Source of the DNA: a virus | Direction: 5' to 3' (one strand) | DNA: 52,637 bases | IMG/VR virus record: IMGVR_UViG_3300035041_000009 | Location: 1-52,637 of that record | Shown: positions 18,400-51,005 of the stretch, piece by piece | Layout of the letters: the number at the start of each line of letters is the position of its first letter | How positions within the stretch are numbered: the first letter of the stretch is position 1 | The notes under the pieces: model-generated | Told to the model about the DNA's origin: nothing | The model's database searches: none | What the model saw: only the letters and a program-made list of their open reading frames with translations | Translations under genes and position numbers: made by a program

Positions 18400-19812
18400 A
18401 TGAGCAGTCAGGGTTTTGTCGGCGGTCTTATGCAAGGCTACGACTTTATGGACGATAGATACAACCGCAAAGCACAGAACGAACGCCTTGCGCGTCAGGA
18501 GGACAGGCAGGACAAGCGCCTGGGGATGCAGGAGGAAGCGCACGAGATAGAAAAAATGCAGCGGGAACGTGCGGACGAAGCGCGGAAGATTCAGGCGGTT
18601 CAATACAAGATGCAGAATCAAGTCCCCCTTTCTGAAGATGAGCAGAAGATTGTAGACCGCTATGCCGGTGACGAACGCACGCAGCGGTTTATGCAGAAGG
18701 TGGAGAAAGACCCGCGCAAGGTGTACAGCGCTGCCGATTCCATCCTGCGGGGCGTCAAGGGTGAAGCGAGCAAGACCGATGTTATCAACGCGAGTAACTA
18801 CCTGTTCGACAGCTGGATCGGTCAAGGGGATGGGAAAAACAAGCGCATATCGGACTTAAAACCCATAGACGGGAAGATATACGCAGAGCTGGAATACGAC
18901 GACGAGGAAACGGGAGAACGCGTGACCGGGGCCCCGCTTACCTACCGACGCAAAAAGAGTGACAGCGTTGTGCGTGATCTTGAAGTGGGTAGAGCGGCGG
19001 AAGCGGCTCAGATGATGAAAGCCCTTGCAGCAGAGCGTATCCGCCTGGGCGACACCGGACCGCTAGAACAGCAGGCGAAGCAACAGCAGGCGCAGCGTGA
19101 ATTGGGGCTTAAACTCTTTGAGCGCGGGCTTGACCGTGAAGATATGGCGATTGAGCACGGGTACGACATGGAGAAGGCGCGCTACGAGGGCAATGTGGAG
19201 TTGCAGAAAGAAGCCGTGAAGAAGGCAGAGCAGGCCCTTGGAGAAATGCAGGGGTATATCGACCAATTATTTGAAGAGCCTGTTCTTGACGAAGAAGGCA
19301 ACCAGATCATGCAGGTGGATATGCAAGGCAACGAAGTTCCGGTTACCCGCACCAACCTGGCAGACAAGGCAGAGTTTGTCGTTTTTACGCTACAACGAGG
19401 GCACCGTAATTGGGACGACTCTTACCGTGAGTTTGTGCAGGTAAAACGACAGCAGGCGCAGCAACGGCAGGCAGAGCTGCGCGCACAACAGGTCCAAGAG
19501 CAGGCGCAGAAGAAGGTCGCGAACACTGAACAGCTAATCCAGGGCGGAGATGTGCAGGCGGCAAAAGAGGTGCTTGCAGAGTACCAAAACCAGACCCCTA
19601 AGGTTTACCAATTCATTATGGAGAACCTCTCCGAAGAAAGCCGCAAGGCGCTTCAACAGCCGGCACAGCAACAGCCTGAAAAAGAGTACACCCTGGGCAA
19701 AGGCTTACAGGACGCAAAGACCAACCTTGGGCGAGTGGGGCAAAAAGCAGCCGGAAAAGCAACCGGGCTTAGCGATTGGGTGGACAGCCTAAACTTTAAT
19801 TGGAAGAAATAA
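18400..19812 (+). CDS. Q/E/K-rich coiled-coil protein (470 aa), probably an internal virion protein
   Basis: Track ORF. SD is GGGGGA. Composition and position support the call. Confidence 0.65.
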   Translation: MSSQGFVGGLMQGYDFMDDRYNRKAQNERLARQEDRQDKRLGMQEEAHEIEKMQRERADEARKIQAVQYKMQNQVPLSEDEQKIVDRYAGDERTQRFMQKVEKDPRKVYSAADSILRGVKGEASKTDVINASNYLFDSWIGQGDGKNKRISDLKPIDGKIYAELEYDDEETGERVTGAPLTYRRKKSDSVVRDLEVGRAAEAAQMMKALAAERIRLGDTGPLEQQAKQQQAQRELGLKLFERGLDREDMAIEHGYDMEKARYEGNVELQKEAVKKAEQALGEMQGYIDQLFEEPVLDEEGNQIMQVDMQGNEVPVTRTNLADKAEFVVFTLQRGHRNWDDSYREFVQVKRQQAQQRQAELRAQQVQEQAQKKVANTEQLIQGGDVQAAKEVLAEYQNQTPKVYQFIMENLSEESRKALQQPAQQQPEKEYTLGKGLQDAKTNLGRVGQKAAGKATGLSDWVDSLNFNWKK

Positions 19813-32038: not shown

Positions 32039-32122
32039 GGGCGCGTTGGGCAGGTGGTGAGCCCCACAGACTGTAAATCTGTCGCTAACGCTTTGGTAGT
32101 TCGATTCTACCCGCGCCCACCA
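32039..32122 (+). tRNA. tRNA-Tyr (anticodon GTA), class II with long variable arm, CCA encoded
   Basis: Folded by hand. Acceptor GGGCGCG/CGCGCCC, D stem GGGC/GCCC, anticodon arm ACAGA-CTGTAAA-TCTGT, T arm GGTAG-TTCGATT-CTACC, discriminator A, then CCA. Confidence 0.85.
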
Positions 32123-43714: not shown

Positions 43715-43885
43715 ATGTGCGAGGAAAAGATAAAAATAGAGCTGCCAGTTAAGGAGATCAACAAACGCGGCACCGGCTGGATAACCAAGCAGATGGAGAA
43801 CGCAGGCATGAAGCGATACCCGTACACATGGAGGGGCAAGGGGCTGGATACGGTAGTGATAGAGGGGGTTAAATGCAGCGAATAA
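43715..43885 (+). CDS. 56-aa hypothetical protein (not in ORF track)
   Basis: ATG follows GAGGGG. Fills the gap and overlaps the next gene by 13 nt. Confidence 0.45.
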   Translation: MCEEKIKIELPVKEINKRGTGWITKQMENAGMKRYPYTWRGKGLDTVVIEGVKCSE

Positions 43886-44274
43886 TTATCAGAGACGCGG
43901 CACTCCGGGAGCGAGCATTGGAGTGCGTAAGAAAAGCTCCCGAAGGCCACGAGGTAGTTATCAAGAAGTATAAACCACCAAAGACCATCCCGCAACTATC
44001 GTACTGCTTTGGGGTGATCTACAAGACGATCATCCAGTTTGTTGAAGAGAGTTACGGGGAAACATTCACGCCCGAGGAAATCCATAAGTGGATGAAAAAG
44101 CAGATCATCGGCGTGGATTACAAAGAGTTTGACGGTGAGGTGATAGAGACCGAGCGCGAACTTAAAAAGTCAGACCGGGAGGAATGGAGCAGGTACATAG
44201 ACTGCGTGATCCGGTACTGCTGGAATAGGTGGGGGCTGATGATACCGGCCCCGGAGTGGAGGGAAGAACATTGA
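43873..44274 (+). CDS. NinB/Orf-like protein (tentative)
   Basis: VVIKKYKPPKTIPQLSYCFGVIYKTI loosely matches the NinB pattern (...RSLDQNRKLWA...). It sits in a nin-like region. Confidence 0.5.
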   Translation: MQRIIIRDAALRERALECVRKAPEGHEVVIKKYKPPKTIPQLSYCFGVIYKTIIQFVEESYGETFTPEEIHKWMKKQIIGVDYKEFDGEVIETERELKKSDREEWSRYIDCVIRYCWNRWGLMIPAPEWREEH

Positions 44275-45464
44275 CATGGATAATACCAAAGAATTTACAG
44301 CTATCGAGTGGTGCGCCGGATACGGAGGCATTCAGCTTGGACTTAGACGAGTTATCCCGAATATGCGAACAATCGCTTATAGCGAGATCGAAGCCTTCGC
44401 TTGCGCGAACTTGGTTGCGAAGATGGAAGCGGGAAAGTTGGATGCAGCACCTATATGGCCGGATCTTAAAACCTTCCCGTGCAAAGAGTTTCACGGAAAA
44501 GTGGACTTGCTTGTTGCCGGATACCCGTGCCAGCCATTCAGCGCCGCAGGTAGACGAGGCGGAGCAGACGATCCCCGCCACCTCTGGCCGTATATCCGAG
44601 ACGCAATTAGAATTATTCAGCCCCGATACTGCTTCTTTGAAAACGTCGATGGACACATATCGCTTGGACTCTCCACAGTCATCTCAGATTTGGAAGAAGA
44701 TGGTTACCGAGCAACGTTTGGAATATTCAGCGCGGAAGAATGCGGCGCTCCACACCGCAGAAAGCGGGTGTTTATCTTGGCAGACCGCAACAGTATCAAC
44801 GGGGGCACATCGCCAAGCAGACGGGACAATGACAGACAAGCTAGACAGACAGGTGAAGAAGTGGGCGACACCCAACACAATGGATTATCTGGATTGCAGG
44901 ACACCGGAAGGGGTGTTGAGACAAGCAACTGGAGCGCGGAAGGGCAGATCAAGACCGGCAAACCTACGGGAGCAGGTAGACCCTGTAACGTGCGAGATAT
45001 ACAAGAAAGCGAACTGGCCCACCACCACCACCAGGGATTACAAGGGTTGCGGCAATGCAGTGGACAGGAAGGACGGCAAGCACCGCTTGGACACTTTGGA
45101 AGCGGTGGCCAAGTTTGGCCCGCAAGACCGGGAGAACCGCAATATGAGTGGGAGCCACCGAGAACTACAGGAGGAGTGGACTACACCTCTGGCAGACGAC
45201 ACTGGATTCCGTCAGAAACGATACTCACAAGGCGGAACAGCACTTTCGATGCAGGCACAAGGCAAGCTGAACGCCCGCTGGGTAGAGACTTTAATGGGCT
45301 TACCCGTGGGATGGACTATGCCGAGTTGTGCCGAACCTGTGATAATCGCACCGATGAACTGCGGTTGTTGGGAAACGGTATCGTGCCTGCAACAGCAGAG
45401 CGGGCATGGCGGGTGTTGTATGGGAGGCTGTGATGAACTTCAAGCAAAAAAAATGGCGCAATAA
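44271..45464 (+). CDS. Fully overlapping +1-frame ORF (about 398 aa) with WxTP..D repeats and an LNxxWVExLMGxPxGWT motif (frame B)
   Basis: Open from 44229 to 45464. TTG 44271 lies 7 nt after GGAGGG and overlaps the upstream TGA. Motifs are KKWATPNTMDY, NWPTTTTRDYKG, EEWTTPLADD and KLNARWVETLMGLPVGWT. The first ATG in this frame is at 44442. Confidence 0.5.
   Translation: MTWIIPKNLQLSSGAPDTEAFSLDLDELSRICEQSLIARSKPSLARTWLRRWKRESWMQHLYGRILKPSRAKSFTEKWTCLLPDTRASHSAPQVDEAEQTIPATSGRISETQLELFSPDTASLKTSMDTYRLDSPQSSQIWKKMVTEQRLEYSARKNAALHTAESGCLSWQTATVSTGAHRQADGTMTDKLDRQVKKWATPNTMDYLDCRTPEGVLRQATGARKGRSRPANLREQVDPVTCEIYKKANWPTTTTRDYKGCGNAVDRKDGKHRLDTLEAVAKFGPQDRENRNMSGSHRELQEEWTTPLADDTGFRQKRYSQGGTALSMQAQGKLNARWVETLMGLPVGWTMPSCAEPVIIAPMNCGCWETVSCLQQQSGHGGCCMGGCDELQAKKMAQ
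44276..45433 (+). CDS. DNA cytosine-5 methyltransferase (frame A)
   Basis: Motifs in canonical order: I EWCAGYGG, IV GYPCQPFS, VI ENV, VIII RKRVFILA, then WPARPGEPQYEWEPPR and X LLGNGIVP. Confidence 0.85.
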   Translation: MDNTKEFTAIEWCAGYGGIQLGLRRVIPNMRTIAYSEIEAFACANLVAKMEAGKLDAAPIWPDLKTFPCKEFHGKVDLLVAGYPCQPFSAAGRRGGADDPRHLWPYIRDAIRIIQPRYCFFENVDGHISLGLSTVISDLEEDGYRATFGIFSAEECGAPHRRKRVFILADRNSINGGTSPSRRDNDRQARQTGEEVGDTQHNGLSGLQDTGRGVETSNWSAEGQIKTGKPTGAGRPCNVRDIQESELAHHHHQGLQGLRQCSGQEGRQAPLGHFGSGGQVWPARPGEPQYEWEPPRTTGGVDYTSGRRHWIPSETILTRRNSTFDAGTRQAERPLGRDFNGLTRGMDYAELCRTCDNRTDELRLLGNGIVPATAERAWRVLYGRL

Positions 45465-45726
45465 AAAATACCTGGACTTCGTGCGCTCACTCCCGTGCTC
45501 ACTTTGCGGAGCGCCAGCGGACCACGCCCACCATATCATCGGCATAGGCGGTATGGGCGGCATGGGAACAAAAGCCAGTGACCACATGACAATGCCGATG
45601 TGCGCAGGCTGCCACCGGGCAATGCATGACGATCCGAGTAAATGGAGCCTACAGTGGGAATTTATCGCGCATACACTCGGCAAGGCGATAGATGCGGGGG
45701 TGCTGGATGTTAAAGGCAGAGGTTGA
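45433..45726 (+). CDS. DUF968-like zinc/HNH-like protein
   Basis: KKYLDFVRSLPCSLCGAPADHAHHI...MPMCAGCHRAMH. Confidence 0.7.
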   Translation: MNFKQKKWRNKKYLDFVRSLPCSLCGAPADHAHHIIGIGGMGGMGTKASDHMTMPMCAGCHRAMHDDPSKWSLQWEFIAHTLGKAIDAGVLDVKGRG

Positions 45727-48366: not shown

Positions 48367-49073
48367 ACGTAACCCTTATATCACACACAGATATGCCCAC
48401 CACCACCTGCGCCCGCGCTGCCAGGACATGCACATCGGTACACCCGTGGGCAGAATATGACCCTGATAAACTATTACGCCGCGTACTTGACATGGGCCAT
48501 GAGTCCATCGCAGAACACGCTAGCTTTACTTTCGTAATCGAGGGCATCAGCCGCGCATGTAGTCACCAGCTTGTGAGGTACCGCCATGCCAGTTATGCCC
48601 AGCAGAGTCAGCGCTATGTGAAACTAAGCCCGGACTGTGCGAGTCACGAATGGTACGTGATGCCTGACACTGTTCAGGGCAATAGAAAAACTGCCAGCCG
48701 TATGGCCAGGGCAATGCAGGAGGTCCGCGAGGCGTACCATGACCTATTGGACGAAGGTGTGCCGGCTGAGGACGCACGCTTTGTGCTTCCCAACGCCGCA
48801 TGTACAAACATTACAGTAACGCTCAACGCCGCCGAACTCCGCCATATGATGCGGCAGAGGCTGTGCAATCGGGCGCAGTGGGAGATTAGGGCCCTTGTGG
48901 GCGAGATGGCAGAGCTTGCGCGTGGAGTTGCTCCTGTGCTGTTTGAGGGGGTTGGGCCGGCATGTTTGAGCGGGGAGTGTCCGGAAGGAAAACGCAGCTG
49001 TGGCAGATGCGGAAGACCGTTCTGGCATGATCTTGAAAAACGGAGAAAAGAAGGCGAGTTTACAAACAGCTAA
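48363..49073 (+). CDS. thyX: FAD-dependent thymidylate synthase ThyX
   Basis: HESIAEHASFTF and the ThyX motif RHASYAQQSQRY (RHRxxSxxxxSxR type). Confidence 0.88.
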   Translation: MNVTLISHTDMPTTTCARAARTCTSVHPWAEYDPDKLLRRVLDMGHESIAEHASFTFVIEGISRACSHQLVRYRHASYAQQSQRYVKLSPDCASHEWYVMPDTVQGNRKTASRMARAMQEVREAYHDLLDEGVPAEDARFVLPNAACTNITVTLNAAELRHMMRQRLCNRAQWEIRALVGEMAELARGVAPVLFEGVGPACLSGECPEGKRSCGRCGRPFWHDLEKRRKEGEFTNS

Positions 49074-49122
49074 CGCTTGCCGATAACCGGCGAGTGAAAC
49101 GATCTACATATGGAGGTGTCTA

Positions 49123-49374
49123 ATGGGATATTGCGTGTGTGGAGAAAACAGCCCAATTTGTTTTTGCTCGGGTCATCAAAACGACAAATCGAAAGAGTGG
49201 AAATATTTTGAGTTTGAGCAATGCCCATCGTGCGGAAACGATGTCGAGGTGTTGACCGACGCACCAGCCGGATATGTACAGGACGGGGATGCTGTGCGGT
49301 GCGTCGATGCCAACTGCGGTTTTCGGTCTAGTGTGTCTGTTGATGACGAAGAAATCTGGATTCAAGACGCATAG
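49123..49374 (+). CDS. Cys-rich zinc-ribbon protein
   Basis: CxC...C, CPSCG and C..NC motifs. ATG follows GGAGG. Confidence 0.6.
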   Translation: MGYCVCGENSPICFCSGHQNDKSKEWKYFEFEQCPSCGNDVEVLTDAPAGYVQDGDAVRCVDANCGFRSSVSVDDEEIWIQDA

Positions 49375-49400
49375 TGCTGGGATTAGGAAAGGATAGAGAG

Positions 49401-49682
49401 ATGGGAACAAACGCAAGCATACTTAGTTACGAAATGAATAAAAAAGATATCAACGAAGAATGGCAAAAACAAAGCGAGGCGCAGAAACGAGAGATAGCAG
49501 AACTCCGCGCACAACTGGCAAGTTATGAAGAGGTAATGAGATGCGCTAAAAATCTCGTTAGTGTAAAAGGCACGCTTCATAACTTTATGAGTATTGGTCT
49601 TCATGCAGATAATACTCCTGCTTTTAAGGCATTAGAAAAAGCTGTCCGTGCAGCGAAGGAGGTATCTAGTGGAAGATCTTAA
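49401..49682 (+). CDS. Hypothetical coiled-coil protein
   Basis: ATG follows GGATAGAGAG. Confidence 0.55.
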   Translation: MGTNASILSYEMNKKDINEEWQKQSEAQKREIAELRAQLASYEEVMRCAKNLVSVKGTLHNFMSIGLHADNTPAFKALEKAVRAAKEVSSGRS

Positions 49683-50022
49683 TTATAAAATCAAAAGAGA
49701 GAAATTCCTATGTGAAGCAATGGGCATTTGTTGGCACGAAAACTTTCCCGTGTGTGATAAATGTGGTGAAGAATATGATGTAGTCAATTTCCACAATAGT
49801 CTACCCGATTTTTCGACATGGGAAGGATTTGGAAAACTATTCGAGTGGGTAAAGGATCAGCGTTGGTATGCAAAACTGTGTTTTACGGTTATAAGGACAG
49901 GGTACTCAGCATACCCGGGCAGTGTAATGAGTATTCCAGACAAGTATATTGACCCTGATATTTTTGCTGATGCGGTTTATGAATATTTAAGTAATGTAGC
50001 GAAGGAGGCTAAGAATGACTAA
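49669..50022 (+). CDS. Hypothetical Cys-containing protein
   Basis: GTG lies 6 nt after AAGGAGG. Confidence 0.55.
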   Translation: MEDLNYKIKREKFLCEAMGICWHENFPVCDKCGEEYDVVNFHNSLPDFSTWEGFGKLFEWVKDQRWYAKLCFTVIRTGYSAYPGSVMSIPDKYIDPDIFADAVYEYLSNVAKEAKND

Positions 50023-50269
50023 TACACTAGACAAAGAATTGGCTCATGCTGACCAAGGTGTAGAAAGAGTATTGTACGAGGAAACCATGACGCTATCACC
50101 GGAAAAAGCATTGCAATTATTAGCGGCAGGAGAAAAACTAAGGAGAACTGATTGGGACGATTTTAGGTACATTTACTTATCCCCTTGTACTGATTGGCAT
50201 ATCACAGATGAAAACGGTAACGATCATCATGTTTCCGATTTCAATGATTTTGAAGTTTACAAAGAATAA
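50015..50269 (+). CDS. Small protein, possibly a short DUF2829-like variant
   Basis: ALQLLAAGEKLRRTDWDDFRYIYL...ITDENGN...DFNDFEVY loosely resembles short DUF2829 proteins. Confidence 0.5.
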   Translation: MTNTLDKELAHADQGVERVLYEETMTLSPEKALQLLAAGEKLRRTDWDDFRYIYLSPCTDWHITDENGNDHHVSDFNDFEVYKE

Positions 50270-50293
50270 TACGTGCAGCGAAGGAGGCGAGAG

Positions 50294-50488
50294 GTGAAAG
50301 TATCTAAGAAGCAAGCGATAAAGATAATTGAAAGGCTGACAAGTAGAGATGGTGGTTTTGATGACTGGTGGGTAGATATGATGGACGACATGGGCCTATA
50401 CGACGAAAATAATGATACTTGGCCCTCACTTTTCGATGTTCTTGAGGCACTTGGAGTTACTAAACAGGAGTACAGGGAGGTTATATAA
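50294..50488 (+). CDS. Hypothetical protein
   Basis: GTG 50294 follows AAGGAGG (50281-50287). Confidence 0.55.
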   Translation: MKVSKKQAIKIIERLTSRDGGFDDWWVDMMDDMGLYDENNDTWPSLFDVLEALGVTKQEYREVI

Positions 50489-50871
50489 TGAGTAATCTAA
50501 CAGAAAGACTCCGCGAACTCTCCCGCGCACAGCATGAAGATCTGAGTGTAGCGGGTGAAGCGGCGGATAGAATAGAAGTTCTCCAGCGAGATATTGTGGA
50601 ACTGAACAATACGCTTAAACAGTATAAGCGTGTACTCAAGAAAATGGCAGACTGGGATGTTGTAGAAAAAGAGCAGCGAGACTTGGAAATTGAGTGCGGA
50701 GAACGCCGTTTTAATGACCTTCTTGATATACATATGGCGCTCAGTAGAAAAAATAAAAGATACCGCGTATTGCTTGAGGAGCTGTATGCATGCTCAAACT
50801 GTCTGGAGAATTGGGATTTACCGGTAGGGTTTAAAGACATAGTGGAAGAGGTGTTGAGAGATGACGCTTGA
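50488..50871 (+). CDS. Hypothetical coiled-coil protein
   Basis: TAATG coupling. Last gene of the rightward operon. Confidence 0.6.
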   Translation: MSNLTERLRELSRAQHEDLSVAGEAADRIEVLQRDIVELNNTLKQYKRVLKKMADWDVVEKEQRDLEIECGERRFNDLLDIHMALSRKNKRYRVLLEELYACSNCLENWDLPVGFKDIVEEVLRDDA

Positions 50872-50977
50872 AGAGGTAAAGGGTGAAGAGGGCTGAGGTT
50901 TTCTTGCATAAACCCCTGAAATTTGGTACATTACAGATAGCCGTAATTCTCCTTTCTTTGGTTAGATACACCTCCTG

Positions 50978-51005
50978 GCCCCGGTTCGCACTGGGGCATT
51001 TTTTT
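50978..51005 (+). terminator. Rho-independent terminator ending the rightward early operon
   Basis: GCCCCGG-TTCGCA-CTGGGGC, followed by ATTTTTTT. Confidence 0.75.

Follow-up and report, generated by a model that had tools for sequence, protein, structure and literature searches.

A phage C5 methyltransferase gene with two fully overlapping reading frames under alternating selection, probably encoding two chains of one enzyme

The viral record IMGVR_UViG_3300035041_000009 of IMG/VR was analysed over 52,637 nucleotides (nt), and this whole 52.6-kb stretch is called the window here. The locus under study is a cytosine-C5 methyltransferase gene on the + strand, in which two open reading frames (ORFs) overlap completely: frame A (protein pA) carries the methyltransferase motifs, and frame B (protein pB) runs in the +1 register relative to it. 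Dual coding under selection is close to certain at this locus. By analogy with M.EcoHK31I of Escherichia coli, the one precedent studied by experiment, the locus probably encodes a two-polypeptide orphan phage C5 methyltransferase, with an overlap that extends over the full length of the gene. Translation of both chains, their association and a role of the repeated frame-B modules in target recognition are inferred. A first-pass annotation made from the letters of the DNA had described two fully overlapping + strand ORFs of ~400 codons and had judged a second frame open by chance improbable. Both ORFs are present where it placed them, and a stop-to-stop scan for same-strand pairs with at least 150 open codons each and near-complete overlap found only this pair in the window.

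Conservation of the open frames was assessed in 160 homologous loci, 80 viral loci ascertained with frame-B peptides and 80 bacterial loci ascertained with frame-A peptides. The bacterial set was chosen via frame A to remove ascertainment bias, and it covers Verrucomicrobia, Planctomycetes, Bacteroidota, many Alphaproteobacteria and other groups. Results showed that frame A had no stop codon within the gene body in 80/80 viral loci (third frame, 10-32 stops), and that in ~75 of the 80 bacterial loci frame B had either no stop at all or none before the final ~10% of the gene (third frame, 4-29). Over the catalytic region, frame B was free of stops in 63/63 genes (mean of the third frame, 6.9). 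When synonymous codons were shuffled with protein and codon usage kept, ~7 stops per gene arose in frame B and ~13 in frame A. Resampling with the phage's own codon usage gave a probability of no stop of 0.0008 for frame B at 44276-44782 and of <0.0002 for frame A at 44784-45317. The two-frame layout recurs at 34-68% identity in these 160 independent loci, which come from many studies and phyla and include isolate phage genomes. The openness of the second frame in homologues, which the first-pass annotation had proposed to check, is thus conserved in nearly all of the 160 loci.

Both frames also keep their own starts. Start codons in both frames were present in 76/76 non-redundant start contexts, where the start region reads ATGTGGAT or ATGACATGGAT; that of the window reads TTGACATGG. 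In the ATGTGGAT form, the frame-B ATG overlaps a frame-A GTG. In the ATGACATGGAT form there is an ATG in both frames, and Thr is encoded by ACA throughout (by TCA in one case), so that the frame-A ATG is preserved. An upstream ORF of at least 50 codons ends no more than 13 nt from the starts in 38 of the 76 contexts (TAATGTGG or TGACATGG), an arrangement that suits reinitiation into either frame. In the window, frame B is 411 aa long when counted from GTG 44229, and TTG 44271 is the start backed by homologues. The motif GGAGGG lies 7 nt from this TTG and 12 nt from the frame-A ATG at 44276. The adjoining TGA, TTG and ATG likewise form an arrangement suited to termination-reinitiation into either frame. 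All of these elements had been read correctly in the first-pass annotation, and its idea of dual coding, with one ribosome landing pad feeding two starts, is backed by the conservation of both starts across the family, by the openness of both frames, by frame-specific selection and by a frame A without stops across an HNH insert in frame B of one relative.

Selection was mapped in 65 non-redundant genes by codon-phase diversity and relative synonymous diversity. Purifying selection was found to alternate along the gene in the order A-B-A-B-A, with at least four switches (Table 1). Over the catalytic core (44306..44782), the wobble position of frame A was the most variable codon phase. Constraint in both frames was seen in the first ~75 codons (44271-44495) and at 45306-45350. 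The frame-specific synonymous diversity indicates that each frame is under protein-level purifying selection somewhere in the gene. Suppressed synonymous variation, another signal that had been suggested for examination, is therefore present in homologues in a frame-specific form that switches between A and B.

The protein of frame A is a C5 methyltransferase in its sequence, with motifs I (FxGxG-type), IV (PCQ), VI (ENV) and VIII (RxR) in order and motif X (GNxVxxP) at the C-terminus; the canonical order given in the first-pass annotation holds, its coordinates being right to within a codon. At least 5815 frame-A homologues were found, all carrying PF00145. In pA itself PF00145 matches with E=9e-34, over residues 7-225 only, which correspond to profile positions 1-215 of 324. 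Phrog_363 matches residues 2-380 and so spans both protein ends, and TIGR00675 scores 92 bits, below its cut-off of 100.65. In the AlphaFold2 (AF2) model, the predicted local distance difference test score (pLDDT) is 84-97 for residues 1-171, below 50 for most of 172-357, and 95 for 367-385. Foldseek with this model found M.HhaI, M.HaeIII and DNMT1 at E~1e-12 over only ~180 columns, so that the large domain alone is matched. The model suggests that pA folds as a catalytic large domain plus motif X helices, joined by a ~185-residue disordered linker. A target-recognition domain (TRD) and motif IX between motifs VIII and X were not found in pA with PF00145, TIGR00675, AF2 or a motif census. The linker region does contain a frame-A island, WP..PGEPQ..WEPPR, which is found in 109 of 120 A homologues and coincides with a local pLDDT bump of ~60.

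For frame B, 1799 homologous proteins were found, with E-values as low as 1e-98 and ~90% of its length covered; not one of them carries a Pfam domain. Their alignment runs over the full length, and each begins with MWI(L/I)PK at the point where frame A starts. Phrog_1008, annotated as 'DNA methyltransferase', matches frame B with E=2e-13; Pfam and NCBIfam gave no match on frame B, and a PDB sequence search with the frame-B profile gave none either. Confident AF2 helices of pB lie at residues 24-79, 134-163 (pLDDT up to 97) and 334-341. The first of them falls in the conserved N-terminal segment (44349..44477), where all three codon phases are suppressed, frame-A synonymous diversity is only 0.17-0.38, and Trp, Arg and Lys positions are invariant across 97 sequences (helices 24-79, pLDDT ~70-75). 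The segment is a candidate for binding pA. The long helix IWKKMVTEQRLEYSARKNAALHT (AF2 134-163, pLDDT 88-97) has invariant W140, V144, R148 and R154, and frame-A synonymous diversity there is 0.43-0.47. Downstream, frame B carries WxT(P) modules, putative tandem target-recognition modules, whose number ranges from 1 to ~9 among homologues and is 4 in the window.

Several claims of the first-pass annotation on frame B could be refined. Its WxT signatures are real and methyltransferase-associated, and they count four modules rather than three, the one at 44778 being added. The block KLNARWVETLMGLPVGWT is present and starts at 45264, not 45266. That frame B belongs with methylases is supported by phrog_1008 and by profile evidence; the notion of an unrelated accessory gives way to that of a TRD/motif IX part of the same enzyme. 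The profile searches that it had proposed for both translations assigned frame A to PF00145 and phrog_363, and frame B to phrog_1008 with no Pfam match.

Several lines of evidence point to frame B as the part that pA lacks. Among 240 homologues, catalytic motifs and motif X occur only in proteins called in frame A, and WxT modules and LMGxPxGW only in proteins called in frame B; no single-frame fusion protein was found among them. A profile that joins the motif IX-like block from frame B to motif X from frame A had C5 methyltransferases (4onq and 4onj, E=0.18, both motifs aligned) as its sole PDB matches, and a pure-A profile of the same DNA stretch had no PDB match. When the frame-B middle was spliced into frame A, PF00145 aligned with the A-B-A chimera over profile positions 1-317 of 324. 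Pfam found no match on the C-terminal fragments, be they chimeric, pure A or pure B. The mycobacteriophage Jarcob protein gp70 holds in one frame motif VIII, three LLPTP modules, FSEWMMGWPAGW and motif X. On gp70, the A profile matches residues 10-49 (motif VIII) and 228-253 (motif X), and the B profile matches 109-221, between them; the frame-B WxT(P) modules align to the LLPTP modules, and KLNARWVETLMGLPVGWT aligns to FSEWMMGWPAGW. This alignment is suggestive of homology between the frame-B blocks and the target-recognition/motif IX stretch that links motif VIII to motif X in a single-chain enzyme. Frame B does not look like a gene overprinted de novo, since its segments match in-frame parts of the single-chain gp70.

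The A profile matched a frame f and the B profile the frame f+1 in 7 annotated or metagenomic loci (E 1e-16 to 1e-99), and the pieces were divided between the frames in different ways. In C75C1, Sphingomonas and Paenibacillus pAP1, both frames are laid out as in the window, the pAP1 frame-B ORF starting internally. In ReT1v-1, frame A contains motifs I-VIII, a linker, W..WE, motif IX and motif X, and frame A+1 contains four LPTP modules. In Gudmit, frame A runs from motifs I-VIII through two modules to motif IX and motif X, and A+1 has three more modules. In Jarcob, frame A holds motifs I-VI, and everything from motif VIII on is in A+1. The Jarcob genes gp69/gp70 (locus L163, 1798-2968) are annotated as two overlapping coding sequences, and the frame of motifs I-VI ends at a stop. 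The arrangement may be a split like that of M.AquI, or else the gp69 stop may be a site of +1 recoding. Family members also occur in cultured hosts, among them Geminisphaera colitermitum TAV2 (L084), Dyadobacter (L107) and Devosia pacifica (L159). A second, alphaproteobacterial subfamily (L083-L162, e.g. L133, L145 and L148) shows the same two-frame layout with different sequences, frame B reading TLNPLFVEALMGWPTGWT... and frame A LEPAVRRGADGLAHRVDRLRLCGNGVVP.

A metagenome contig encoding P0112 (L082, 1-1708) bears on translation of the gene middle. Its frame B has gained an HNH/NUMOD4 domain of ~170 residues; frame A has no stop across the ~510-nt insert and resumes at motif X (569 open codons in A, 562 in B), with the third frame full of stops. 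Such openness of frame A across foreign DNA is an argument for ribosomes reading this frame through the whole middle of the gene, and for translation of frame B. The insert resembles the 'hidden HNH' inserts of PMC11855218. A further locus, from a Rickettsiales metagenome-assembled genome (L112, 2459-3838), has the N-terminus, last module and motif IX in one frame, the modules in +1, and W..W and motif X in -1. This three-frame pattern probably reflects indel errors in a long-read, pilon-polished contig and was set aside on that ground, though it could be a further natural rearrangement.

The nearest described enzyme is M.EcoHK31I from E. coli HK31 (Lee, Kam & Shaw 1995). According to PMC2836561 and PMC3404938, it is a C5 methyltransferase that needs two chains: alpha bears motifs I-VIII plus X, with a predicted TRD, and beta has motif IX, is a 176-aa ORF internal to the alpha gene and read in a different frame, and requires its N-terminal residues for association. 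The likeness of the window's gene is to this published description; a search of E. coli genomes gave no match. The window's gene has an alpha-type chain that carries motifs I-VIII together with motif X, and a block KLNARWVETLMGLPVGWT resembling motif IX in the second (+1) frame, whose homology to motif IX appears modestly supported by sequence. The part of the beta N-terminus in association may parallel the constrained N-terminal segment of pB. Unlike the internal 176-aa beta ORF, frame B of the window is co-extensive with frame A (~397 versus 385 codons), and the two starts are adjacent, 5 nt apart. Its beta-like frame holds the repeated recognition-like modules, whereas in M.EcoHK31I it was alpha to which the TRD was assigned, and the window's gene, set in a nin-like region, is a phage orphan with no restriction enzyme partner.

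M.AquI (Karreman & de Waard 1990) is, according to PMC3404938, a two-subunit C5 methyltransferase with motifs I-VIII in alpha and IX-X in beta. It is similar in being a naturally split enzyme whose two chains must assemble; it differs in being cut once into a larger and a smaller subunit, with motif X in beta. No description of a full-length frame overlap in M.AquI was found. Jarcob gp69/gp70 is closer to the M.AquI type. In actinophage methylase genes, out-of-frame 'hidden' HNH endonuclease inserts (ShiLan domain) have been described, with the second frame treated as confined to the insert and its translation left unexplained (PMC11855218). L082 is like these inserts (PMC11855218) in that its methylase frame is open through an insert whose product uses another frame. 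The present genes differ from the ShiLan type in that openness and selection of the second frame extend over the methylase gene's full length, the HNH domain of L082 being continuous with that frame. The multispecific C5 methyltransferases of Bacillus phages SPR, phi3T and rho11s are, like the window's gene, phage orphans. They have several short tandem target-recognition modules between motifs VIII and IX, with which the putative modules of frame B may be compared, and they are single chains encoded in one frame.

We propose that one mRNA would be read in two completely overlapping frames to give the two polypeptides of one C5 methyltransferase. Ribosomes would land on the single Shine-Dalgarno sequence, or reinitiate after the upstream TGA, and initiation at ATG 44276 would yield pA, or at TTG 44271 pB. 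The pA chain would supply the large domain that binds S-adenosylmethionine and performs catalysis (motifs I-VIII), as well as the motif X helices, and its ~185-residue linker would be the out-of-frame reading of pB's functional segments. The pB chain would bring a partly constrained helical N-terminus, encoded over the catalytic coding region, followed by the four WxT(P) modules and by the block that resembles motif IX. Both chains would assemble to an active enzyme as M.EcoHK31I alpha and beta do, and the tandem modules may confer more than one sequence specificity.

A number of observations weigh against this proposal. The frame-A GTG follows automatically from the Met-Trp of frame B in 55 of the 76 starts. 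The PDB match of the joined IX(B) and X(A) profile is weak at its E=0.18, splicing the frame-B middle into frame A raises the PF00145 score by only 1 bit, and the B-profile match on gp70 alone amounts to 12.6 bits. Most of pB is predicted to be disordered (AF2 mean pLDDT 54), its modules do not fold in isolation in the model, and Foldseek with this low-confidence model finds no fold match. It is also not obvious why pB starts at the 5' end, unlike the internal starts of EcoHK31I beta and Paenibacillus pAP1.

Another way to read the selection on both frames is that frame A is a complete, unusual methyltransferase and frame B an independent overprinted accessory, such as a regulator or anti-defence factor. 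Besides the clear selection on both frames, such a pB would fit its lack of Pfam, NCBIfam and PDB matches, its largely disordered model, and the conserved post-VIII motifs that frame A has of its own (WP..PGEPQ..WEPPR and LG.D.DG). We nevertheless regard it as unlikely. It leaves pA without a folded small domain, motif IX or a recognisable TRD, and the frame-B blocks align between motifs VIII and X of gp70. Motif IX lies in frame A in ReT1v-1 and Gudmit, which argues that the pieces switch frames as parts of one enzyme, and M.EcoHK31I alpha is inactive without beta (PMC2836561). The collinearity with gp70 and the PF00145 alignment over positions 1-317 of 324 would suit a single chain made by programmed recoding, with a start in frame A, a +1 shift after motif VIII, and one or more shifts back to reach motif X. 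Set against that, the selection pattern would demand at least four shifts, a -1 slippery heptamer at the B-to-A junction occurs in 0/105 non-redundant loci, no stop inside frame A could induce a +1 shift, and a homopolymer that might allow transcriptional slippage is lacking in the window's gene. Recoding also leaves unexplained the full-length openness, frame B's own conserved start and the open frame A across the HNH insert of L082. With the hallmarks of programmed frameshifting (slippery site, stimulatory stop, closing of the abandoned frame) not found, the heptamer scan covering the 105 loci, we give recoding a small chance only. A simple A-B-A frameshift product was rejected on the A-B-A-B-A selection map and the absence of recoding signals. 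The A-B-A arrangement raised in the first-pass annotation thus holds for the order of homology (motifs I-VIII and X in A, GWT in B) and fails for selection.

Its suggested cause, two compensating indels or read errors in a conventional A-B-A methyltransferase, is contradicted by the 160 divergent loci. Apart from the homology layout nothing speaks for an artefact or pseudogene, and the independent loci, isolate phages among them, together with a chance probability of <1e-3 for each gene part, render it vanishingly improbable; sequencing or assembly error and pseudogene were ruled out by this conservation. It could also be that one frame is translated and the other open through codon or amino-acid composition. 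Off-frame conservation does partly mirror the coding frame, IPASHS of frame B being the shadow of YPCQPF of frame A. However, synonymous shuffles that keep protein and codon usage still create 2.5-13 stops, the wobble phase switches frame along the gene, and both starts are conserved. Composition alone is very improbable as an explanation, and openness as its by-product was rejected on the shuffles and the codon-usage resampling.

If both chains of the proposed two-polypeptide enzyme are made, what has so far been one enzyme's design, that of M.EcoHK31I, becomes an ancient and widespread class of phage anti-restriction methyltransferases, and the segment-by-segment constraint over ~385 codons offers an unusually clean system for two proteins sharing one sequence. 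Tentatively, and somewhat doubtfully, the two-frame format may be a general, largely unrecognised design of phage and prophage C5 methyltransferases in thousands of genes, in which indels merely shift pieces between the chains. With both frames translated from the 5' end, an indel would move downstream pieces from one chain to the other and the enzyme would survive. If true, this format would extend to Actinobacteria, Firmicutes, Proteobacteria, Bacteroidota, Verrucomicrobia and others; it would explain why motif IX, modules and even motif VIII lie in differing frames (the window, ReT1v-1, Gudmit and Jarcob), what lets the number of modules vary so freely, and by what route the 'hidden' homing endonucleases that lie out of frame in methylase genes are translated, an open question of PMC11855218. 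The ~385-codon overlap would then count as one of the longest conserved overlaps between same-strand genes that are known from prokaryotic viruses. No description of a family-wide two-frame architecture was found in the literature searched, the coverage of which was incomplete, and earlier recognition, for example in REBASE, is possible.

Annotation pipelines differ on which frame they call. In this contig, IMG called frame B (P0001) from an internal ATG and left frame A uncalled. In Sphingomonas (L167, 1398-2507), PGAP calls only frame B, as a 'hypothetical protein', and the methyltransferase frame is unannotated. In ReT1v-1 (L165, 1756-2958), a frame-B 'hypothetical protein' stands with a 'DNA methyltransferase' fragment of 50 aa. 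Should both chains be made, the fault in annotation is systematic: either of the two frames, or fragments, but never both frames, are called by IMG, PGAP and phage annotators, catalytic or recognition subunits would be absent from thousands of records, and the 'hypothetical proteins' of the frame-B family would be methyltransferase subunits.

Table 1 Features of the two-frame methyltransferase locus and its flanks, with the segments where selection is assigned to one frame (window coordinates; relative synonymous diversity as mapped in 65 genes)
Feature	Position	Strand	Remarks
Frame A ORF (pA)	44276..45433	+	385 aa, ATG start; alpha-like chain
Frame B ORF (pB)	44271..45464, open from 44229	+	~397 aa from TTG 44271; beta-like chain
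Shine-Dalgarno GGAGGG, common to both starts	44258..44263	+	direct reading of sequence
TGA stop of upstream NinB/Orf-like gene (43873-44274)	44272..44274	+	overlaps frame-B TTG; 1 nt before frame-A ATG
Frame-A catalytic core	44306..44782	+	motifs I 44306-44329, IV 44519-44542, VI 44639-44647, VIII 44753-44782
Frame-B conserved N-terminal segment (ELSRICEQSLIARSKPSLARTWLRRWKRESWMQHLYGRILKPS)	44349..44477	+	constrained in both frames
Frame-B predicted long helix (IWKKMVTEQRLEYSARKNAALHT)	44688..44756	+	overlaps frame-A motifs VII-VIII
Frame-B WxT(P) modules, four	44778..45206	+	starts 44778, 44862, 45015, 45177
Frame-A island WPARPGEPQYEWEPPR (WP..PGEPQ..WEPPR)	45116..45163	+	lies between frame-B modules
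Frame-B motif IX-like block KLNARWVETLMGLPVGWT	45264..45317	+	frame-B-specific selection
Frame-A motif X (DNRTDELRLLGNGIVP) and C-terminal helices	45341..45430	+	motif X 45341-45388, LLGNGIVP
HNH-like gene (phrog_96), downstream	45433-45726	+	ATG overlaps frame-A stop (TGATG)
Frame A selected: motifs IV-VI	44496-44675		synonymous diversity A 0.60-0.76, B 0.13-0.23
Frame B selected: first WxT module	~44775-44810		
Frame A selected: WP..PGEPQ..WEPPR	45126-45170		A conservation 0.85, synonymous diversity 0.51; B 0.15
Frame B selected: WxTP module	45171-45215		relative synonymous diversity B 0.86, A 0.20
Frame B selected: KLNPRWVETLMGLPV	45261-45305		B conservation 0.96, synonymous diversity 0.76; A 0.04
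Frame A selected: motif X	45351-45440		A conservation 0.98, synonymous diversity 0.82-0.98; B 0.11

The methyltransferase gene lies in a nin-like region, with genes for NinB/Orf, an HNH-like protein and RusA as neighbours. A partner restriction endonuclease was not found among these neighbours, and the context is therefore that of a phage orphan. The HNH-like gene overlaps the last 32 nt of frame B, so that three reading frames are used at ~45433-45464. Near and distant searches of INPHARED phages and E. coli genomes found no close DNA relatives.

Elsewhere in the window, a 3,479-aa ORF (19800-30239, +) has PHROG matches to DarB-like antirestriction (residues 21-1292), endolysin-like (1029-1144) and DNA methyltransferase (~1941-2144) families. 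Judged by these matches, it is probably a giant multidomain antirestriction protein, in which case the phage would have two very different methylation/anti-restriction devices. The stretch 49000-51000 has a G+C content of 0.43 (versus ~0.53 elsewhere), a strong positive GC skew (+0.245) and a run of small + strand ORFs (71-127 aa); neither tandem repeats nor an Rfam match were found there. A foreign origin, as a moron or a cassette of early genes, is possible for it. One tRNA-Tyr (GTA) gene is present at 32039-32122 (+).

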